DNA of 64,000 nt, taken from positions 1,910-65,909 of the forward strand of contig JAJZTL010000001.1 in the NCBI GenBank assembly GCA_021848965.1, written 5' to 3'. The DNA is from Pseudomonadota bacterium. Lineage in GTDB: Bacteria; Pseudomonadota; Gammaproteobacteria; Legionellales; Legionellaceae. Below, in pieces: positions 3,752-44,043 of this stretch (the first letter of the stretch is position 1; each line of letters opens with the position of its first letter). Made by a program: the position numbers and the translations under genes. The notes below the pieces were generated by a model, which worked only from the letters and a program-made list of their open reading frames with translations, ran no database searches and was not told the origin of the DNA.

Positions 3752-3921
3752 TATCTTTCCATTTTTTACCCGTTTTACTTTGAAGATAATTTTATACTGA
3801 AAACACCTTGAACGCCAAGAAAATTAAAGATATAAATTTTTTTATCTTAGTCTATTTGCTTCTAAATAAAACTATGATAATAATTGTTCTTCCAATTAAA
3901 TTAACTGAAGGTATCATTATT

Positions 3922-4260
3922 ATGGCGGAAAAGAAAAAAGCTGCGATTAAAGAAACTCAAACGCAAACACAAATTATTGGGCATATTGCAGAACAAGTTT
4001 CTCTCACAAGAAAGCAAGTAGGAACTATTTTTCAGGCTGTCGCAGAACTAGCAAGCCGACATATTTCCAAAAATGGTTCTGGCGAATTTAAGATTCCTCA
4101 TTTGGGCATTAAAATTATGAGAAAAACAAAGCCTGCAACCAAAAAGCGTAAAGGCATCAATCCAGCCACAGGAGCCGCCATCGAAATTGCAGCAAAACCT
4201 AAGCGTGATGTGGTTAAACTGGTTGCATTAAAAGCATTAAAAGACGTTTTAGAAAAGTAG
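3922..4260 (+). CDS. HU-family histone-like DNA-binding protein with Lys-rich arm
   Basis: The internal ATG at 3922 gives a 112-aa protein. HU fold signature: ...LTRKQVGTIFQAV...GEFKIPHLGIKIMRKTKP..GINPATGAAIEIAAKP. The track ORF 3808.. has an implausible hydrophobic leader. Confidence 0.85.
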   Translation: MAEKKKAAIKETQTQTQIIGHIAEQVSLTRKQVGTIFQAVAELASRHISKNGSGEFKIPHLGIKIMRKTKPATKKRKGINPATGAAIEIAAKPKRDVVKLVALKALKDVLEK

Positions 4261-4280
4261 TTTTATTTTTATCAAAAAAA

Positions 4281-4321
4281 TCTCCCCTGCCCCCCCTTTG
4301 TTAAAGGGGGGCAGGGGGGAT
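4281..4321 (+). terminator. G/C-rich palindromic element acting as probable intrinsic terminator of the HU gene
   Basis: TCTCCCCTGCCCCCCCTTT-GTT-AAAGGGGGGCAGGGGGGA followed by TTTT, 20 nt after the stop codon. Same family as 10108-10150. Confidence 0.6.
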
Positions 4322-4337
4322 TTTACATCTCATCATC

Positions 4338-5462
4338 ATGAACATCATTAATCTCACGAAACAGCTCATTCAATTTCCGTCTATCACGCCAGATGATGCA
4401 GGCTGCCAAGAGTTTATCGCTCAAATTTTAACCAAAATTGGATTTTCTATACAGCATTGGCCATGCAATAAAGTAAAAAATTTATGGGCAAGATACGGTT
4501 CTGAAGAACCACTATTTGTATTTGCAGGACATACCGACGTTGTTCCCACAGGTGATTTATCCTCGTGGGCATCACCGCCTTTTGAACCGGCAATCCGAGA
4601 TAATTTTCTTTTTGGACGTGGTGCTTGTGATATGAAGGGCGGATTAGCAGCCATGCTGGTTGCAACCAAAGCTTTTTTACAAAAAAAACCTAACCTCAAA
4701 GGCAGCATTGGTTTTCTCATTACCAGTGCAGAAGAAGGCGATGACTTTGCTGATGGCACGCCCTATGTCATGCAAAAGCTAAAAGATTTAAATCAACTAC
4801 CGCGTTACTGCATCGTCGGAGAACCTTCTTCGGAGAAAAATTTAGGTGATACGATAAAAATTGGACGACGAGGTTCTTTAACAGGCCATCTAAAAATTTT
4901 AGGCAAACAAGGACATGTAGCCTATCCGCAATATGCTGACAATCCGATTCATCGCTCCACTGCTTTTCTTCATGAATTAGCTCATACCGAATGGGATAAA
5001 GGCAATGAGTTTTTCCCGCCCACCAGCTTACAAATCACTCAAATTTTAGCGAACTCTGGCGGCAACAACGTCATTCCAGGAGAATTAAAAATCGTTTTCA
5101 ATTTTCGCTATTCACCTGTATTAACTCACGAACAATTAGAAAAATCTGTTGAAAGTCTTTTAAAAAAACATGCTCTTACTTATGAGCTAACATGGAATCT
5201 CAGTGGTCAACCTTTTTTAACCCACCAAGGGCCTTTGCTCGAAGCAGCTAAACATGTTATTCAGCAAGTCTGCCAATTAAATCCTATTTTATCCACCAGT
5301 GGCGGAACCTCTGACGGTCGCTTTATTGCCCCTTATGGTGTCGATGTCATCGAGCTTGGTTTAATCAATAAAACCATTCATCAAATCAATGAATCTACTT
5401 CCATTGAATCATTACAGCAATTATGCATTGTGTATGAAAAATTGCTAGAAGCATTGATTTAA
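4338..5462 (+). CDS. dapE: Succinyl-diaminopimelate desuccinylase
   Basis: M20 peptidase motifs GHTDVVP, RGACDMKG, SAEEG, and typical DapE length of 374 aa. Confidence 0.9.
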   Translation: MNIINLTKQLIQFPSITPDDAGCQEFIAQILTKIGFSIQHWPCNKVKNLWARYGSEEPLFVFAGHTDVVPTGDLSSWASPPFEPAIRDNFLFGRGACDMKGGLAAMLVATKAFLQKKPNLKGSIGFLITSAEEGDDFADGTPYVMQKLKDLNQLPRYCIVGEPSSEKNLGDTIKIGRRGSLTGHLKILGKQGHVAYPQYADNPIHRSTAFLHELAHTEWDKGNEFFPPTSLQITQILANSGGNNVIPGELKIVFNFRYSPVLTHEQLEKSVESLLKKHALTYELTWNLSGQPFLTHQGPLLEAAKHVIQQVCQLNPILSTSGGTSDGRFIAPYGVDVIELGLINKTIHQINESTSIESLQQLCIVYEKLLEALI

Positions 5463-5539
5463 TTAGCCTGAGATTGCTATAGCAAAGTTATTTTGATAGC
5501 ATCATTAAAATATAATTAATTTTGTACCCAAGGTCTACT

Positions 5540-8500
5540 ATGAGCTCTTTTTCATCTAACCTACCTTTATCCTCAGCACAAAAACGAATTTGGTTTGAAA
5601 GTCTAAACACAAAATCATTACAGAATCATGTGATGTTAGCCTACGAACTAAAAGGCCATTTATCTATTCCAGCTTTACAGCAATCATTGATGCAATTGGT
5701 TACAGAAAACGACATTTTTCGAACAACTATATTTAGTGCTGGAAAAAATTTAGAACGCATCGTACACGAACATATGAGCGTTGATTTAAAATGCCTGCCT
5801 GTTGACCCGGATAATGAGCTCTATCCAACGATACAACATTTAATGGAAAAACCATTTAATGTATCAACAGGACCTTTATTCCGTTTTGCTCTATTACAAA
5901 GATCAGAAGACAGCTTTATTTTTTTGTTAATATTTCACCCATTGATTATCAATACATGTGAAATGAAAAAAGTCATACGAGAAATTTCTCATCATTATGA
6001 AAAATTTTTACAGGGACAAACTGTCATTATTGAAGAAAAGCTATCTTACAGTGAATTAGTGACGTATGAAAAACATTATCGAACACAAAGCCTTTATCGA
6101 GATACTATACGCCATTGGAGCAATCGCATAAAGGATAAACAATATCATCTTGATTTAACAAAACTACCCGAAACAGAAGAAATCGCCTCTCAAGTTCGAG
6201 CAAAACGTCTGACTTTAGGAACAACATTTCATACCAAACTGCAATTATTTTGTGAGCAATTTTCTTGCACACCTGAGCATGTTTTTTTATCCACATTGCA
6301 AGCATTGTTATACCGATATAGCGACACACAGGATATTGTGATTAACCGTGCGGAAGAAATTATTTACCAAGAAAATTGGAAAGATTTAATAGGACCAATG
6401 GAAAACATTCTGCCTTGGAATGTTCGTATTACCGAAACAATGACTTTTATCGAATTGTTAAAACAAAACCAGCAATATGATCTTTTTCAAAAATATTACC
6501 CACATGCGCATACGGCAGATGTTGTACGTGCAGTACGAACACGTTTTAACCATCATTTTGATGGCTTCTTTTCCAATGTGTCATTTGAAAAAGAGACCAT
6601 ACCTTATCACGAATTAGTCTTATCCAATGTGTCAGTTAAAGTATTGCCACAGTATATTTCACGTACTCGACAAGATGACTTACAAGTCTTTTATGATGAA
6701 CATAACGGTTGCTTTTATCTTTCTTTTGATTATGCACCCACGCTCTCTGCTCGCTCGGTACAAAATTTTGTTACACATTATGAACTTTTATTAGAAGAAT
6801 TATTAAAAGATCCTAATCAACTACTTTCGAGGGTAAAATTTTTGCCATTTAGCGAGGAAAAACCTGCAGCGAGTTTTATCCCCACCCGCACTATTATTGA
6901 AGATTTTGAACAGGCCGTTGAACAATATCCTCAACATATCGCTCTTATCGACGAAAATACTTCTCTCACTTATACCCAGCTCAACCAAGCGGCCAATCAA
7001 TTAGCCCACTATCTCCAAGCAAAAAAAGTAAAACCCAATGATTACATCGGATTATCCATCGGGCGCCATGTCAATATGGTAGTAGCCATATTCGGTATTC
7101 TCAAGGCAGGGGCTGCCTATGTACCTCTTGACCCCAGCTATCCCAAAGAACGTTTAGATTTTATGAAACAAGACACCCAAATGACACTTGTTATCACCGA
7201 AGAAACGTTTCAAGACATTCAACTTTCGTCTTTTTCCACCCAAAATCTAATCACCAAACCTCAATTAGACGACTTAGCTTATGTGATTTATACCTCCGGC
7301 TCCACCGGCAAACCCAAAGGCGTACTCGTCCCCCATCGCGGACTACCCAACTTAGCGCATTACCAAAATCAACTTTTCTCTATTCACCCCACAACGCGTT
7401 GTTTGCAAACAGGCTCTATTAATTTTGACATTTCCGCACTAGAAATCTATGGTCCATTAATTGCTGGCGCCACTTTATATATTGCCACACATGAACAACG
7501 TACCACACCGTTACAATTACAAGAATACATTATTCAACACCACATTCAAGTTCTTGCCATCACACCTTCCGTATTGTCTCATTTTACATGGAAAGACATG
7601 CCCGAACTATTAACGATCGCAGCTTGTGGCGAAGCTTGTGACCAAAAGCTCATGGACTTCTGGGCACATAACAGAACGTTTATCAATGGCTACGGACCTA
7701 CTGAAATTACTATTATTTCTCATTTTAAAAAATACGACACCCATACATTATTTAACAATTTAGGCCAAACAATTCCTCATGTATACGCTTTTATTTTAGA
7801 CACCCATAAAAATCTTCTTCCCGACGGTGTCCCCGGAGAAATGTTTATCGGTGGCATCGGCGTTACCAAAGGTTATCTCAATCTTTCGGAACAAACCCAA
7901 GAAAAATTTATCCCGAGCCCTTTTCATCCCGATGAGACACTTTATCGCACTAATGATCTTGCTTATCGTTTAGAAAATGGTGATTTTATTTATATAGGCC
8001 GCAATGACACTCAAATCAAAATTCGTGGATTACGTGTAGAACTCGGTGAAATTGAGGAAAAAATCAAAACGTATCCAGCTATTGAACGTGTATTAGTACG
8101 TGTTCTTTCACATGAAACCATTGGAAAAGTCTTAGTTGCCTATTTTATTCAGGATATGTTTAAAAAACCGATTGAAGAAAATACATTGCGTCATTATTTA
8201 AAAGCTCTTTTACCCGAACACATGCTACCGTCTTATTTCATCCGCGTACCCCATTTCCCAATGATGCGTAATGGTAAAATTGATTATCAAGCACTACCTA
8301 ATCCTTTTATCACCTCTGAATATTTTGACCATGAACAGTGTAGTAAGATTGAACAGGTGCTGATTCAAATTTTTGCAGAATTATTTCATCTGGACGAAAA
8401 AGCACTTTCACTGGATCACGATTTTTTTGCGTTGGGCGGTCACTCTCTATTGGCGACGCAACTGATTTCACGAACTAAACAACAATTAAAATTATTATTG

Positions 8501-11500
8501 CCCGTCGCAAAAGTATTTGAATTGCGGACAATTAAGAAGCTAGCCGAATATTTATCAACTTTGAATAATCAAGCAACGGAAGATTTTCCTTTACTGCATA
8601 AGCCTAGCAATGAAAAAGTTCCCCTATCTTTGGCACAGCAAGAGATGTGGTTTCTTTATCAGTGGGATAAATCATCTCCCGTATCTAATAATCCTTTTTT
8701 AATCGGTCTTAAACAAGTTAATGCTGATATTTTAATACGCGCACTGCATTATCTTATTCAGCAAAATTCTATTTTTCGTACGGTTTTTAAAGATTCTGAT
8801 CAAGAACTCCGTCAAATTGTTTTAGAGAAAGTGAAGGCAGATATTCCCTTTTATGAGTCTTTTGATGATTTTTCATCTAAATTAACACAGTGGGATCACA
8901 CACCCTTTGATTTAAGGCTATTTCCTTTATTTCGCTTTGCAGTTTCTTTACAAAATGACATAACCTATCTGTATTGTAATATTCATCATATTATTTTTGA
9001 CGGATGGTCCTTAAAAATATTGATGCAGCAATTAGGAAAAGTGTACGAAGCACTGGAACAAACATTGCCCCTTCCTATTCTCACCACATCTTATAACTTC
9101 GGCGATTTTGCGTATTCGGAGTCGCAATGGATAAAAGACAATAAGTTAGTCAAACAAAAAGAATTTTGGCAATCATTTTTACAAGGCGCTGAACCAACAC
9201 TCAATTTACCCACAGACTTTCCCTATCCTAAAACGCAAAACTATGCAGGAGATACAGTCGAAATAATCATTCCTAAGGCACTCACGGATAGCTTAAGAGC
9301 ACTTGCTTTAGAAAATAAAACAACATTATTTGCGGTTTTATTAACGGCTTATTTTATTCTGCTTTATCGTTATACTAAACAAACAGATATTATCGTAGGA
9401 ACCCCCATTGCTGGGCGCCGTTTACCTGAGCTTGAACCACTGATAGGTTTTTTTGCTCATATATCACTTTACCGCCAGCAGCTCTCCCCCAAAAAAATAT
9501 TTACAGAATTGCTTGGCACTGTGCACCAAAATGCGTGTGATGTGGCAGAAAATCAAGCGATTGCACCCAACCAAATCCTAGAAGCACTGGATATTTATGT
9601 TGATCCGAGCCAAAATTCTTTATTTCAAGTAATGTTTAGTTTACAAACAGGACATCAGCTGGAAGGCCATTTATCTGGTAAATCACATCATTATCATATT
9701 ACCGAACGCCACCAAAAAACGACAAAATTTGATGTTTACTTATTTTTGAATGAAATGTTTAATGGTGAACTAAAAGGTGTTGTAAAATATCGTACGGATT
9801 TATTTACCCAACTTAGCATGCAACATTTATGTACCCATTACCTCAATGTGCTGCAAGCCATTGTTGAAAATGCGAATGCTTCTATTGCAGATTTAACCTT
9901 TCTTTCTTATGAGGAATATCAATTATTGGTAAACACTTGGCCTTATGGGGAGAAACGTCCCTTACCTGAAAAAACAGTATTGGAAATGATAAAAGACGTT
10001 GTCCAGCAAGATCCTGAACTTCCCGCACTGGTCTTTCAAAAACAATCGTTAACCTATGCAGCGTTTTGGGAAAGGGTAGAAAATTTAGCCCGTGCTATTC
10101 AGAGAAATATCCCCCCTGCCCCCTCCTTTACAAAGGGGGAGCAGGGGGGAGGTTGTATTCAGACACCCATTATTGGCATTCTTATGCCTCGTGGTTTTGA
10201 TATGATTATTGCCATGTGCGCCATATGGAAAGCAGGCGGAGCTTATTTACCTTTAGATGCGGATTATCCTGAAGAACGTTCACGCTATATGCTGGATAAT
10301 TCAGGAGCAAAAATTATTATCAGTGTGTCGTTATTAGCAGAGAAACAAAAAGTGTATCTCGATAATGATATTACTTTTATACAAGCTGATCTTCCCCTCT
10401 CCCCAATGAAAGGGAAAGAAGAGATAACAGGCACGCTCTCTCCAAAAAGAGAGAATAAAATGAGTGATCTTGCCTACATTATCTACACCTCTGGCTCAAC
10501 AGGAAATCCCAAAGGCGTCATGTTGCAACATGGTGGGTTGAGTAATCTGGTGAAAGGATTACATGAAGCTTATTGTATGAAAAAAGGAATGAATGTGTTA
10601 CAACTGGTATCCATTAATTTTGATATTTCAGTCAGCGATATTTTTCCAGCATTATCCATTGGTGCCTGTCTTCATCTTGCAACGAATGAATTGAGAGTAT
10701 CTGCTGTAGATATACAAAATTATATTGTTACGCATGGTATACAACTCGTTGAGATTGTACCGGCCCTACTAGAAAGTTTTGAAAAGAAACCTTTGCCTTG
10801 TCTAGAAACTATTGCAACCGGAGGAGATTTTTGTGAGCCCAATGTAATGCGCTATTGGGGTAACCAATGCCGCTTAGTGAATATCTATGGTCCAACGGAA
10901 GTGACAGTAATTTCCTCCTCAAAATGCTATGTTGAAGGCGAATCTTTTCATAATATTGGACGTCCCTTACCGAATACTGAAACCTATATTCTTGATGAAG
11001 ATTTTTATCCTGTTCCTACAGGTGTAATTGGCGAAATGTTTATTGGTGGGCAAGGAGTGGCTCGAGGCTATTTGAATCGTGAAGCATTAACACTCGAACG
11101 TTTTGTTGTGCACCCATTTTCTGATGATCCTAACGCACGTTTGTACCGTACAGGAGATTATGCGCGATGGTTACCAAATGGTGATATTGAAATTGTAGGA
11201 CGCATTGATAATCAGGTTAAAATTCGAGGTTATCGTATTGAAATAGGCGAAATAGAAACCTTATTAAATGCCTATCCAGGTATTAAACAAGTTGCCGTCA
11301 TTACACAAAAATCGCAACAATTGTTATTAGCTTATTTTTCTGTAACCGAAGAAGTTGATATCCAGGAGAATGCATTATATCGTTATTTATCCGCAAAGCT
11401 TCCTGAATATATGATTCCCTCCAGTTTTATTAAACTCGATACACTACCACTAAATTTAAGCGGGAAAGTTGATCGTAAAACCTTGCAAGCCAAAGAATTT

Positions 11501-12904
11501 CAATTGACCAATAAGATAAAAACATTAATAGCACCACGCAATGAAATTGAACGCCGATTATGGGAAATTTGGAAAGAAGTACTCAAAACAGATCAAATTA
11601 GTGTCGAAGATTCTTTTTTTGAATTGGGCGGACACTCATTAGCCGCGTTACGATTTTCATCTCGTTTTCAAGCATCTTATTCCATGAGCTGCCCGATTTC
11701 TATGATTTTTAAATACAAAACAATTGCCGCATTAGCTGAAGCAATACTCAAAGAATCTCCTGAACTGCATAATGATATAAATATACAGTTAATGCATAAG
11801 GATATTCAACGTGCGAAAGCAATAGTAGAACCTATTAAGGGTGACATAAAAGCTCTACCAGAATGTATTTTGATTACAGGAGCACACGGCTTTTTGGGTG
11901 CACATCTATTACAGACTTTATTGTCAGAAACAACAGCTTCTATCATCTGCATCGTTCGCGCAGACTCTCCCGAAGCTCTACAGTTAAAAGTAAAAAAAGA
12001 TTTAGCGCGCTTTAATCTTGAAAAGCTTTCAGAGCATCCTCGTGTTGAATGGATGATAGGTGATTTAAGCCAACCCATGCTTGGATTACAAGAAAATGAA
12101 TACATCCATTTATGTCAGGTAGTTGATAGCATTTATCATTCTGGAGCGTGGGTAAATCATGTTTTGACTTATGAAAATTTACGCGCAACCAATGTGGAAA
12201 GCACATTAACATTCTTGCACATGGCTGCACTCTCTCGCCCTAAAGTGATTAATTATATTTCTACCGCGAATGTAAGCGATGTTATTGATAATCCAAACGC
12301 CTTAAATCAAGCACCAGGATATGTGCAAACTAAATGTGTCAGTGAAATGATTTTGCTTGAAGCAGAAAAAAAAGGATTTAATGTGCACATTTTTAGAATG
12401 GGTAATATTGCTGGACACTCACAAACAGGCGTTTGTGTCGCAGAAAATAATCATTCTTTGTCGGTAATCAAATCTTGCATTGAACTTGGAATTGCACCTG
12501 ACTGGACATTTCCAACAGAAATGATGCCGGTGGATCTTTTAAGCTTGGCCATTGTTCGTGCCTCATTGTGTACAAAATGCACCAGAATCCTGTGGAAATT
12601 GCATAATATTTATGCCCTTTCTTGGAAAGATTATATCCAGTATTTAAATACACTGGGATTTAACATAAAAATAGTGCCCTTAGAACAATGGAAAAACATA
12701 ATAAACCATATTGATGAAAGTAATGCCTTATTTCCTTTTAAAAGTTTTTATGTGAACGCAACATCAGAAAACGTATCGGACATGTTCACTGAGCAAAAAG
12801 GAATATTAGATGAAATTGATTTAGCATATCCACAAGATTATGCGGCAATGGTAAAACTATATTGGACATATTTAAAAGAAAGCGGATTTATACCCAAACA
12901 ATAA
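5540..12904 (+). CDS. Bimodular non-ribosomal peptide synthetase, C*-A-T-C-A-T-R (terminal thioester reductase)
   Basis: Motifs occur in order. C1: LSSAQKRIWF, with a degenerate His motif FHPLIIN at 5933-5953. A1: LAYVIYTSGSTGKPKG, NGYGPTE, YRTNDL, GRNDTQIKIRG, NGKID. T1: FFALGGHS, Ser 8444-8446. C2: HHIIFDG 8984-9004. A2: LAYIIYTSGSTGNPKG, NIYGPTE, YRTGDY, GRIDNQVKIRG, SGKVD. T2: FFELGGHS, Ser 11636-11638. R: TGAHGFLG 11876-11899, YVQTK. The track start 5522 is TTG, so ATG 5540 is preferred. Confidence 0.95.
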   Translation: MSSFSSNLPLSSAQKRIWFESLNTKSLQNHVMLAYELKGHLSIPALQQSLMQLVTENDIFRTTIFSAGKNLERIVHEHMSVDLKCLPVDPDNELYPTIQHLMEKPFNVSTGPLFRFALLQRSEDSFIFLLIFHPLIINTCEMKKVIREISHHYEKFLQGQTVIIEEKLSYSELVTYEKHYRTQSLYRDTIRHWSNRIKDKQYHLDLTKLPETEEIASQVRAKRLTLGTTFHTKLQLFCEQFSCTPEHVFLSTLQALLYRYSDTQDIVINRAEEIIYQENWKDLIGPMENILPWNVRITETMTFIELLKQNQQYDLFQKYYPHAHTADVVRAVRTRFNHHFDGFFSNVSFEKETIPYHELVLSNVSVKVLPQYISRTRQDDLQVFYDEHNGCFYLSFDYAPTLSARSVQNFVTHYELLLEELLKDPNQLLSRVKFLPFSEEKPAASFIPTRTIIEDFEQAVEQYPQHIALIDENTSLTYTQLNQAANQLAHYLQAKKVKPNDYIGLSIGRHVNMVVAIFGILKAGAAYVPLDPSYPKERLDFMKQDTQMTLVITEETFQDIQLSSFSTQNLITKPQLDDLAYVIYTSGSTGKPKGVLVPHRGLPNLAHYQNQLFSIHPTTRCLQTGSINFDISALEIYGPLIAGATLYIATHEQRTTPLQLQEYIIQHHIQVLAITPSVLSHFTWKDMPELLTIAACGEACDQKLMDFWAHNRTFINGYGPTEITIISHFKKYDTHTLFNNLGQTIPHVYAFILDTHKNLLPDGVPGEMFIGGIGVTKGYLNLSEQTQEKFIPSPFHPDETLYRTNDLAYRLENGDFIYIGRNDTQIKIRGLRVELGEIEEKIKTYPAIERVLVRVLSHETIGKVLVAYFIQDMFKKPIEENTLRHYLKALLPEHMLPSYFIRVPHFPMMRNGKIDYQALPNPFITSEYFDHEQCSKIEQVLIQIFAELFHLDEKALSLDHDFFALGGHSLLATQLISRTKQQLKLLLPVAKVFELRTIKKLAEYLSTLNNQATEDFPLLHKPSNEKVPLSLAQQEMWFLYQWDKSSPVSNNPFLIGLKQVNADILIRALHYLIQQNSIFRTVFKDSDQELRQIVLEKVKADIPFYESFDDFSSKLTQWDHTPFDLRLFPLFRFAVSLQNDITYLYCNIHHIIFDGWSLKILMQQLGKVYEALEQTLPLPILTTSYNFGDFAYSESQWIKDNKLVKQKEFWQSFLQGAEPTLNLPTDFPYPKTQNYAGDTVEIIIPKALTDSLRALALENKTTLFAVLLTAYFILLYRYTKQTDIIVGTPIAGRRLPELEPLIGFFAHISLYRQQLSPKKIFTELLGTVHQNACDVAENQAIAPNQILEALDIYVDPSQNSLFQVMFSLQTGHQLEGHLSGKSHHYHITERHQKTTKFDVYLFLNEMFNGELKGVVKYRTDLFTQLSMQHLCTHYLNVLQAIVENANASIADLTFLSYEEYQLLVNTWPYGEKRPLPEKTVLEMIKDVVQQDPELPALVFQKQSLTYAAFWERVENLARAIQRNIPPAPSFTKGEQGGGCIQTPIIGILMPRGFDMIIAMCAIWKAGGAYLPLDADYPEERSRYMLDNSGAKIIISVSLLAEKQKVYLDNDITFIQADLPLSPMKGKEEITGTLSPKRENKMSDLAYIIYTSGSTGNPKGVMLQHGGLSNLVKGLHEAYCMKKGMNVLQLVSINFDISVSDIFPALSIGACLHLATNELRVSAVDIQNYIVTHGIQLVEIVPALLESFEKKPLPCLETIATGGDFCEPNVMRYWGNQCRLVNIYGPTEVTVISSSKCYVEGESFHNIGRPLPNTETYILDEDFYPVPTGVIGEMFIGGQGVARGYLNREALTLERFVVHPFSDDPNARLYRTGDYARWLPNGDIEIVGRIDNQVKIRGYRIEIGEIETLLNAYPGIKQVAVITQKSQQLLLAYFSVTEEVDIQENALYRYLSAKLPEYMIPSSFIKLDTLPLNLSGKVDRKTLQAKEFQLTNKIKTLIAPRNEIERRLWEIWKEVLKTDQISVEDSFFELGGHSLAALRFSSRFQASYSMSCPISMIFKYKTIAALAEAILKESPELHNDINIQLMHKDIQRAKAIVEPIKGDIKALPECILITGAHGFLGAHLLQTLLSETTASIICIVRADSPEALQLKVKKDLARFNLEKLSEHPRVEWMIGDLSQPMLGLQENEYIHLCQVVDSIYHSGAWVNHVLTYENLRATNVESTLTFLHMAALSRPKVINYISTANVSDVIDNPNALNQAPGYVQTKCVSEMILLEAEKKGFNVHIFRMGNIAGHSQTGVCVAENNHSLSVIKSCIELGIAPDWTFPTEMMPVDLLSLAIVRASLCTKCTRILWKLHNIYALSWKDYIQYLNTLGFNIKIVPLEQWKNIINHIDESNALFPFKSFYVNATSENVSDMFTEQKGILDEIDLAYPQDYAAMVKLYWTYLKESGFIPKQ
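10108..10150. repeat. In-frame copy of the G/C-rich palindromic element inside NRPS A2 domain
   Basis: ATCCCCCCTGCCCCCTCCTTT-ACA-AAGGGGGAGCAGGGGGGAG, translated as IPPAPSFTKGEQGGG. Near-identical to 4281-4321. Confidence 0.75.
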
Positions 12905-30441: not shown

Positions 30442-30517
30442 CTTTCGGTTGTAGGTGCAGGTCATGTGCCTGCCCGCTGATGCGCGACCACAAGAGTCAC
30501 CCCTACAAAAAACGAAA
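30442..30517. repeat. REPIN-like doublet B (inverted relative to A)
   Basis: Its reverse complement, TTTCGTTTTTTGTAGGGGTGACTCTTGTGGTCGCG..GGGCAGGCACATGACCTGCACCTACAACCGAAAG, aligns end to end with doublet A. Confidence 0.75.
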
Positions 30518-42111: not shown

Positions 42112-42696
42112 ATGAATACAAAAAGTCCAACCCTTATTCTCTTTACCGTTATCACTACTTTTTTTATCAATGGCTGCCAAGCTCCACCTCCTCAAACATC
42201 AACTTACAATCCTAAAGCCTCGGCCTACAACATTCAACTTGGGTTAGGTTATTTGAAACAAGGCAATCGACAAAGAGCCAAACAAAAGCTATTAACTGCT
42301 GTCGCAGAGGCTCCCAACTCACCTTATGCTAATGAAGCTTTAGCTTATTATTTTGAGAATACGCATGAAGTAAACCAAGCTGAAAATTATTATCAGAAAG
42401 CGATTACATTAGCACCAAAATCCGGAGCCATTTTAAACAACTATGCAACCTTTCTTTGTCGCCACAAACACTATAAAGAAGCGCTCTATTATTTTTCAAA
42501 AGCTGCTGCAGATTCTGAATATATCAATACTGCGCTGGCTTATAAAAATGCTGGCTTTTGTGCGAAAGCAGCACATGACACTGTTCTGGCAAAAAAATAT
42601 TTTAAACAAGCCTTAGAGCAAGATCCTTCATTAAAGCAAGCGAGAGAAGAGCTTAATCAACTAAATAATTACCATGACGCAAGAAACAGTCATTAG
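42112..42696 (+). CDS. pilW: Type IV pilus biogenesis/stability TPR lipoprotein PilW
   Basis: Lipobox INGCQ, TPR repeats, and the conserved ndk-rlmN-pilW synteny. Confidence 0.7.
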   Translation: MNTKSPTLILFTVITTFFINGCQAPPPQTSTYNPKASAYNIQLGLGYLKQGNRQRAKQKLLTAVAEAPNSPYANEALAYYFENTHEVNQAENYYQKAITLAPKSGAILNNYATFLCRHKHYKEALYYFSKAAADSEYINTALAYKNAGFCAKAAHDTVLAKKYFKQALEQDPSLKQAREELNQLNNYHDARNSH

Positions 42697-42841
42697 ACTT
42701 ATATGGAAGAAAAAGGATTTCATACGAGTGTTATGTTGGATTCTGAAAAAATTGCTGTGACAGGGTAGAGCTTTGGTCAAATGTTGACCTTACAAAACAT
42801 TGTCAAAAAACGGTCGTTTAATGATAATAACTCTTCTTAAA

Positions 42842-42918
42842 AGTTCTTAATTAATTTAAGAACTTATTGACTTGACTTAAAAAAATGTTGATAATAGTTC
42901 TTAAATTAATTAAGAACT
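42842..42918 (+). promoter_or_regulatory. Promoter bracketed by two copies of a 23-bp palindrome
   Basis: AGTTCTTAA-TTAAT-TTAAGAACT (42842-42864) and AGTTCTTAA-ATTAA-TTAAGAACT (42896-42918) flank TTGACT (42867-42872), a 17-nt spacer and GATAAT (42890-42895). Confidence 0.55.
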
Positions 42919-42927
42919 TTTAAGACT

Positions 42928-44043
42928 ATGAATAAAAAAACTGATTGGCATTTTGCTAGACCTGAACTAGCTGAGAGCTATTTAAATATATTTTCTTTAG
43001 GTTTGACTTCTGCTCGCGGTCTTTTTGCTAGAAGAAGAATGGGAAAAACAGAGTTTTTAAAAGAAGATTTAATACCTGCGGCAAAAAAACAAAATTATAA
43101 TATCGTTTATGTTAATTTATGGGAATTGGAGATAGATCCAGCTACTGCTTTAGTTTCGGAGTTTTATAGGGCAGTAGAGCCAACAGGATTTGATAAAATT
43201 TGGAATAAATTAAAACTACCCGTTAGTAAACTGCGAGCTTCAGGAAAAATTCCTTATTTAGGCGAAGCTTCTGTGGAGATTGACTCTAATGAACAAAAAA
43301 AAATAACAGGTACTTTACTAATGGAGGCAATGCATGTTTTTGATAAAACAGATTTTTCTTTGTTATTTATTATAGACGAAGCACAAGTACTCGCTTATGA
43401 GGAAAACTCACACTTTGCACATGCTTTACGGGCTGCTTTAGATATTAGAAAAGATCGTATTAAAGTTCTTTTTGCTGGAAGTTCTGAAAATACTTTGAGA
43501 AAAATGTTTGGCGTTCCTTCGGAACCATTTTATAACTGGGCACCACTAGAAGCATTTGACTTACTTGGAAGTGAATTCGTTAAATCAATGGTTGATCATG
43601 TCAATAATATATCAAAATTTCCATTATCTTTTGACGAAGCATTTTATGCTTTTGAACAATTAAAAAATACCCCAGAATTTTTCCGTCGATACATTGAATA
43701 CTACCTTATCCATCCAATGAAAGGTTCAGATGAAGCTTTAAAAATTACAAAAGAAAAAGTGTTTAATGATAAAAATTTCAAAAATCAGTGGGGCACATTA
43801 TTACCTGCAGATAAAATTATTCTTTTTATGATTGCTAATGGTGAAACTGATTTGCATGGGAAAAGTATTTTACAAAAATTAAGTATGGCGCTTGGAGTTG
43901 ATGAAGGTATTAATAAAAATACAACGCATAATGCATTACGGCGATTAGCGAATAAAAACATTATAACAAAAATAAAATATGGAATTTATCAATTTGAGGA
44001 TGAGGCTTTTTCTGATTGGGTAAAATATCAAGATCATGATTAA
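42928..44043 (+). CDS. ATPase (archaeal-ATPase/PF01637-like) with C-terminal winged-helix
   Basis: Walker A RRRMGKTEF, Walker B LFIIDEAQ, C-terminal ..HNALRRLANKNIITKIKYGIYQFEDEAFSDWV. Confidence 0.75.
   Translation: MNKKTDWHFARPELAESYLNIFSLGLTSARGLFARRRMGKTEFLKEDLIPAAKKQNYNIVYVNLWELEIDPATALVSEFYRAVEPTGFDKIWNKLKLPVSKLRASGKIPYLGEASVEIDSNEQKKITGTLLMEAMHVFDKTDFSLLFIIDEAQVLAYEENSHFAHALRAALDIRKDRIKVLFAGSSENTLRKMFGVPSEPFYNWAPLEAFDLLGSEFVKSMVDHVNNISKFPLSFDEAFYAFEQLKNTPEFFRRYIEYYLIHPMKGSDEALKITKEKVFNDKNFKNQWGTLLPADKIILFMIANGETDLHGKSILQKLSMALGVDEGINKNTTHNALRRLANKNIITKIKYGIYQFEDEAFSDWVKYQDHD

Follow-up and report, generated by a model that had tools for sequence, protein, structure and literature searches.

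Why should a nonribosomal peptide synthetase (NRPS) gene of a Legionellaceae bacterium carry a GC-rich palindrome in frame within its second adenylation domain, when a close relative of that palindrome lies between two genes 5.8 kb upstream? Both are found in a 64,000-nt stretch (the window; contig JAJZTL010000001.1 of assembly GCA_021848965.1) of a metagenome-assembled genome (MAG), and they are referred to here as copy A, within the NRPS gene, and copy B, upstream of it. Copy A is best explained as an old, partly decayed resident of a short (~45 nt), self-complementary, GC-rich, dispersed and non-autonomous repeat that occurs in many phyla, a reading to which a probability of roughly three in four can be assigned. 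Its support comes from the specificity of the two copies in the window, from the recurrence of the same sequence in other genomes, and from the presence of that sequence in frame in unrelated genes.

Copy A (10109..10151, no strand assigned) was delimited by string location, alignment, folding and a covariance model, the last of which matches over 10105-10155. A sequence-only reading of the window had reported the 43-nt string at 10108-10150; the string is present but begins one nucleotide later, such that the ATC at 10109 is a whole codon (codon 1530 of ORF 5522-12904) and the element starts on a codon boundary. A left C-rich arm (10110..10128, +) and a right G-rich arm (10132..10150, +), each of 19 nt, are 84% complementary and separated by 3 nt. 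This degree of complementarity, together with two non-mirrored 1-nt insertions, identifies a decayed member of the family. RNA folding, which the sequence-only reading had suggested as a check on hairpin stability, predicts a hairpin of -34.2 kcal/mol (z=-3.9). The element has a G+C content of 65% compared with 37% for the host gene, in agreement with its description as a GC island in an AT-rich gene, and it is read in frame in module 2 as IPPAPSFTKGEQGG(G). The translation previously proposed, NIPPAPSFTKGEQGGGC, and the 14 residues by which module 2 exceeds module 1 are both confirmed.

The host open reading frame (ORF; 5522..12904, +) encodes 2460 aa without interruption and has the Pfam domain order C-A-T-C-A-T-R; a database protein (P0001) is 100% identical to it, with 2454 aa as called. 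In module 2, copy A falls between the core motifs A1 and A2 of the adenylation domain. Alignment and structure comparison place a 14-residue gap at this point both in module 1 of the same NRPS and in solved adenylation (A) domains (LgrA 6mfy). An alignment-based AlphaFold model of the N-terminal part of the A2 domain (9911..11200, +) has a predicted template-modelling score (pTM) of 0.86. The insert, residues 67-81 of the modelled segment, forms a coil with a per-residue confidence (pLDDT) of about 40, between a helix (49-66) and a strand (87-91). On the evidence of the alignments and this model, the insertion point is a permissive, variable A-domain loop. The loop that copy A encodes is Pro/Gly-rich, about 15 residues long and presumably flexible, and is probably neutral for catalysis.

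Copy B (4276..4325, no strand assigned; covariance model, folding and terminator scan) is a near-consensus palindrome, with arms of 22 nt at 4277-4298 and 4303-4324 that are 91% complementary and a predicted RNA hairpin of -39.3 kcal/mol (z=-5.9). The ORF list and Pfam place it between genes for an HU-like protein (Bac_DNA_binding; 3808..4260, +) and a dapE-like M20 peptidase (4338..5462, +), the latter starting 13 nt beyond the palindrome. As had been stated, the string at 4281-4321 begins exactly 20 nt past the HU-like stop codon and runs directly into TTTT, completing the order A-tract, GC stem, T-tract. In a terminator scan, copy B is terminator-like on both strands, and copy A, which has no T-tail, is not; of the two, only copy B has the GC-rich stem-loop and T-run 3' of a gene that define an intrinsic terminator. 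Judged by this anatomy, copy B is probably the intrinsic terminator of the HU-like gene, the role first proposed for it.

The similarity of the two copies is specific. About 42 of 46-47 positions match in either orientation, slightly better with one copy inverted, and the loop TTTGT(T)AAA is common to both. The half-site CCCCTGCCCCC, with at most one mismatch, occurs 4 times in the 64 kb, all within copies A and B, against an expectation of 0.14. When a covariance model derived exclusively from copies of other genomes is run on the window, it returns exactly two sites, scoring 65.8 bits (E=9e-18) and 45.6 bits (E=1e-11); no further match within the 64 kb lies below E=1. A sequence profile of the same derivation recovers exactly copies A and B. 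The claim of a palindromic repeat with two copies in the window is upheld by both the half-site count and the covariance model. The same data bear on an origin in situ, in which the NRPS loop would have become palindromic through quasi-palindrome template switching within the gene, its resemblance to copy B reflecting convergence of GC-rich hairpins. The site is a hypervariable loop, and template switching can perfect imperfect palindromes. Against such an origin stand the half-site count and the match at E=1e-11 to a model from other genomes, a match that extends to family-specific CTGC/GCAG linkers and to the flanking ATC, and it is accordingly very improbable.

The distribution of the element was examined in a single pattern scan, fitted to both window copies and run over 185,579 species-representative genomes, among which the source genome is not included. 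The sequence AAATCCCCCCTGCCCCCCTTT-nnn-AAAGGGGGGCAGGGGGGATTT is carried by 85 loci in about a dozen phyla; carriers include Nitrospirota, Desulfobacterota/Syntrophia, Bacteroidota, Armatimonadota, Chloroflexota, Planctomycetota, Nitrospinota, Spirochaetota, Firestonebacteria, Chlorobaculum, Lysobacter, Methylococcales and others, at locus G+C contents of 0.34 to 0.69. Some genomes have several matches, with diverged or three-quarter copies close by, and no Rickettsiales genome is among the 85 loci. The family consensus, nnAAATCCCCCCTGCCCCCCTTTnnnAAAGGGGGGCAGGGGGGATTTnn, is conserved beyond the search pattern and ends in AAATCCCCCC and GGGGGGATTT. Its layout consists of two C-runs, a TTT-loop-AAA center and two G-runs, with AAAT and ATTT at the flanks, and the whole element forms one hairpin of ~45-48 nt with a loop of 2-5 nt. 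No description of the element was found in the searchable literature by DNA string, peptide string or generic description. Rfam gave no match in the window at the gathering threshold; on 7 loci with the element it returned nothing beyond microRNA-hairpin noise below threshold.

Because the source is a MAG, as are most of the family matches, an assembly or binning artefact has to be considered. A second contig record, of different length and from another repository (L001), carries the locus without a single difference, the reading frame is kept across the 2460-aa ORF, and copies occur in genomes of the isolates Chlorobaculum sp. 24CR and Lysobacter sp. Root916. Immediately upstream of the locus, the second record has genes for IcmS and IcmT, from which a Legionellales-type organism can be inferred. 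These observations leave an artefact with almost no credibility.

At least 7 of the 85 copies are in frame inside Pfam-confirmed genes; these 7 loci are the only clearly gene-internal ones, and the remainder, mostly intergenic, are intergenic or ambiguous. The host genes encode PdxA (L040), a diacylglycerol kinase (DAGK)/YegS protein (L071), YfiH-type Cu-oxidase_4 proteins (L083 and L073, at different sites), a family-4 uracil-DNA glycosylase (UDG; L019), an MMPL protein (L078) and FliK (L081). Depending on the frame, the encoded peptide reads ..PPLPPF.KGGQGG.. or ..PPCPPL.KGGRGD... A profile of the triplicated encoded peptide (15 aa) was uninformative, returning only 69 candidates and 21 tiny hypothetical ORFs. 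Among the 120 Nitrospirota PdxA orthologues listed, most have 316 aa and no insert, and peptides of this kind appear at 3 alignment sites in different lineages; in nucleotide sequence, L040 and L089 contain the palindrome and L088 and L090 lack it. A metagenome scan with the YfiH-type gene of Methylobacter produced 80 loci. Each of two sites in them shows empty alleles alongside copies that are simple, decayed or interrupted by a nested second hairpin. The copy at site A of L073 is one of the decayed ones. Filled YfiH-type alleles are 30 nt longer than empty ones, the 45-nt element replacing ~15 nt.

The nested arrangements merit a comment of their own. Small palindromes such as CCTGTCCTGAGCCTGTCGAATGG are lodged within element copies, in or close to the linker that separates the C/G runs. 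Composites of this type occur at site B in L091-L094, L100 and L103, and L100 has a further one at about nt 170-260 of its YfiH-type gene. This nesting suggests that hairpins are preferred landing sites.

In-frame copies in other genes and phyla imply that entry into ORFs is a general property of the family, and they speak to the possibility of a one-off local event, in which a patch of the HU terminator would have been copied ectopically into the NRPS gene by gene conversion or template switching, with no active mobile family in the genome. Such an event would account for a window in which the only two copies lie near each other and have the same loop. Against it, other genes from many phyla contain the sequence in frame, and single gene families have it at several sites. 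Copy A is also more decayed than copy B, as would fit an older copy of separate origin. A one-off origin is therefore improbable, if less so than an origin in situ.

Comparison with orthologous loci indicates what the source lineage has gained. Only two close relatives of the NRPS are in the protein database, P0003 (59% identity) and P0002 (56%), and P0003 is encoded in a syntenic HU-dapE-NRPS locus (L002, from GCA_902168255.1). The element is absent from L002, both at the two orthologous sites and elsewhere in its 27.5 kb, which implies that it is extra DNA in the source lineage; at the point of copy A it is also absent from the other 12 A-domain segments aligned. The orthologous A2 domains have a loop of their own at this point, of 8-17 residues, AT-coded and unrelated in sequence, and the net length difference between the copy A allele and P0003 is only 3 codons. 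The element may have joined this older loop or have taken the place of part of it. The earlier proposal of inserted DNA thus stands with respect to the absence of the element from relatives, and not with respect to a clean insertion of 15 residues.

The orthologue has palindromes of another kind. At 15011-15066 of L002, a doublet of repetitive extragenic palindromes (REPs) with a GTAG head lies in frame inside the P0003 gene, between motifs A2 and A3 of module 2, where it is translated as FVGAGLVPARRRASTRLAPTG; the surrounding 120-nt segment has a predicted dG of -48.9 kcal/mol. A further single GTAG-REP is located upstream in the same ORF, at 12498-12522. Together with copy A, these REPs imply in-frame entry of two distinct palindrome families into this NRPS lineage, and the source NRPS is not the only megasynthase with a palindrome. 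Two Microcystis NRPS proteins, P0010 and P0022, have an A-domain loop ..NPFVSLDPPLTPLDKGGEQPSKLYKTGD.. that, from its peptide pattern, looks like another insert derived from a C-run/G-run palindrome.

The GTAG-headed REPs (~GTAGGGGCGGGTCTTGTGCCCGCCC) also constitute a second, distinct family of GC-rich palindromes in the window itself. Inverted-repeat and motif scans place them at 28930-28954(+)/28961-28985(-), 30451-30475(+) and 51949-51973(+)/52003-52027(-), the first and last of these sites being inverted doublets that resemble REPINs. The first doublet starts 55 nt past the end of a 2281-aa ORF (22030-28875, +), in which SecA_DEAD and Helicase_C are the only Pfam domains above threshold. 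Elsewhere in the window, a perfect 30-nt AT-rich inverted repeat (TCTTAAAAGTTCTTAATTAATTTAAGAACT; 42835-42864 and 42896-42925, with a 31-nt spacer) lies between ORFs 42112-42696 and 42928-44043.

The outer stem of the palindrome differs by lineage and remains self-complementary (ATC/GAT, TAC/GTA, GTC/GAC, GGCCTCTC/GAGAGGCC). Outside the search pattern, complementarity at positions 3-6 and 8 exceeds that of all 1000 shuffles and falls to background from position 9. Changes on both sides affect 66 cells of an alignment of 71 sequences, compared with 29.9 in shuffles (0/500). Two close pairs of YfiH-type alleles, with flanks 94-95% identical, have arm differences that are exactly mirror-placed, at 11/33 (C:G to A:T) and 12/32 (C:G to T:A). 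At site A of the YfiH-type gene, the elements of L092 and L103 are identical at 44/45 positions (98%), whereas the 372 nt of flanking coding sequence are 75% identical; as this pair demonstrates, the element can be far more conserved than its host gene. Mirror-paired changes and such identity imply that the palindrome is selected, or is corrected against itself or other copies, or is repeatedly re-inserted at the same site.

Selection is at the center of one alternative, in which the element would be a functional cis-element acting in RNA (as a terminator, pause site or mRNA-stabilizing stem) or in DNA (as a protein-binding cruciform), with in-gene copies regulatory rather than merely tolerated. 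The mirror-paired arm changes, the conservation of the element above its host gene in the L092/L103 pair, the covarying outer stem, the terminator anatomy of copy B and the very high predicted stability are all in its favor. It is nonetheless unlikely. The same DNA is used in different frames of unrelated proteins and in non-homologous contexts, many copies are decayed, including copy A and that at site A of L073, copy A lacks a T-tail, and no Rfam family matches. Mirror pairs, moreover, can arise without selection through template-switch correction of quasi-palindromes.

A bolder proposal is that the element represents an undescribed, pan-bacterial class of 45-nt self-complementary elements that colonize coding sequences in frame and whose sequence and symmetry are actively maintained. 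The mirror-paired changes and the 98% identity within a host gene that is 75% identical would point this way, but the proposal can be advanced only tentatively. If true, it would call for conserved trans-acting machinery or a conserved function, and the element would be more than a passive, REP-like remnant.

Among known systems, the element is best read as a REP-like or Rickettsia palindromic element (RPE)-like, non-autonomous, hairpin-forming repeat. RPEs are palindromes that are found in intergenic regions and in frame in unrelated housekeeping genes, at permissive sites where the protein is not destroyed; they have been described within Rickettsia, measure ~100-150 bp and comprise ten families that differ in the peptide they encode (PMC10969869). 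The present element resembles them in being in frame in unrelated genes (NRPS, PdxA, DAGK/YegS, YfiH-type, UDG, MMPL and FliK). It differs in its length of ~45-48 nt, its richness in G/C homopolymers and its occurrence in many phyla, a distinction drawn from the published description of RPEs. The RPE-like behavior suggested by the sequence-only reading is therefore seen in the unrelated host genes and the filled and empty alleles, whereas defining features of RPEs and of tagged REPs are missing.

Some REPs, too, lie wholly inside ORFs and are translated (PMC3733652). Like REPs and REPINs, the element is a short, imperfect, repeated palindrome, mostly extragenic and often 3' of genes, with some copies in ORFs and with nested and doublet arrangements. 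Unlike them, it has no GTAG or CGTC head and is nearly identical across phyla, whereas REP families are usually specific to a species or genus. In the 85 8-kb blocks that were compared, no RAYT-like gene recurs near it. The element behaves like RPEs and in-ORF REPs and, by its length and by the GTAG/CGTC head, belongs to neither. What sets it apart is that copies from different phyla are nearly identical and that it can be much better conserved than the gene around it.

More distant parallels exist. Heterocystous cyanobacteria reportedly contain small dispersed repeats of 21-27 nt (attributed to Elhai et al. 2008, Genome Res 18:1484, a reference listed in PMC3116915) that nest in each other and in hairpins, in coding and non-coding DNA; these are likewise tiny, mobile, nesting palindromes, with other sequences and confined to cyanobacteria. 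The GC clusters of yeast mitochondria are GC-rich mobile palindromes in an AT-rich genome, some of them in frame in protein genes. They differ in being organellar, eukaryotic and unrelated in sequence. Such clusters are a topic of one publication (PMC8811140). Copy B is similar to intrinsic terminators and to the SPRITE elements of S. pneumoniae in its A-tract, GC stem and T-tract, from which copy A differs in having no T-tail and in lying inside an ORF. Ordinary terminators are not known to share a 45-nt sequence across phyla. Within the Legionellales, Coxiella burnetii has small non-autonomous repeats, QMITE1 (about 400 bp) and QMITE2 (150-190 bp), with terminal inverted repeats and direct repeats, some of which form in-frame ORF fusions; QMITE2 holds a GTAG REP (PMC5896051). 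Although an obvious precedent, they were set aside because their size and architecture differ and because of the GTAG tag; their sequence, too, is unrelated. More generally, miniature inverted-repeat transposable elements, typically 70-400 bp in all, have an internal region between terminal inverted repeats, and the present element is a single hairpin of ~45 nt.

Several observations weigh against interpreting copy A as a resident of a dispersed repeat. The count for the source genome, which covers 64 kb of it, is just two. Two copies do not by themselves indicate an expansion of the family in the source lineage or mobility within that genome. In the NRPS gene, a clean net insertion of 15 residues is not demonstrable against the nearest orthologue, which is only 59% identical, and insertion into an ancestral shorter loop is therefore inferred. 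The filled and empty PdxA and YfiH-type alleles, whose flanks are 75-95% identical and not isogenic, allow neither a target-site duplication nor a clean junction to be defined, and ~15 nt of the empty alleles are replaced. Loci chosen for the YfiH-type gene have the element only within that gene, with no match in ~80 kb of flanking sequence, so that many copies may have been passed down vertically for a long time instead of having moved recently. Clustering of the neighboring genes in the 85 8-kb blocks revealed no recurrent gene family beside the element, transposases included. The pattern scan gave no match in viral contigs, and blastn gave none in plasmids, where a low-complexity filter may have masked the query. 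Finally, 4-6 of the 6 frames are open in the elements, only slightly more than in composition-matched shuffles. Open frames are mainly an effect of composition, and freedom from stop codons in all six frames, once entertained as a design feature, has been toned down accordingly, the shuffles being nearly as open.

If copy A is indeed an old member of a dispersed repeat, new copies would arise by a hairpin-dependent copy-and-paste process. One candidate route is single-strand transposition of the HUH/Y1 type, as proposed for REP/RAYT and IS200/IS605; another would be template switching or gene conversion from other copies. HUH/Y1 elements leave no target duplication. The undetectable target duplication and the apparent dependence on hairpins would fit either HUH/Y1-type transposition or template switching. 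Copies that land in genes would survive only if the frame is kept, stop codons are avoided and a permissive loop is hit, and arms made of G and C cannot encode stops. On this reading, intergenic copies, which look like bidirectional terminators, are the common case, and in-gene copies persist where frame and fold allow.

For the source NRPS, this reading traces an odd Pro/Gly-rich A-domain loop to a repeat and not to a function of the enzyme. It also points to a likely terminator for the HU-like gene and advises caution to annotators, and to users of NRPS-specificity predictors, over inserts of this type. Beyond this locus, a 45-nt palindrome is present almost letter for letter in Nitrospirota, Desulfobacterota, Bacteroidota, Chlorobiota, several Gammaproteobacteria and others, with in-frame copies in housekeeping enzymes and with arms that evolve in step. 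The covariance model from the present analysis makes a census of the family feasible. If the finding is general, it would bear on how tiny DNA elements spread between phyla without a visible transposase, on how hairpins are maintained inside genes and on how proteins gain new surface loops.

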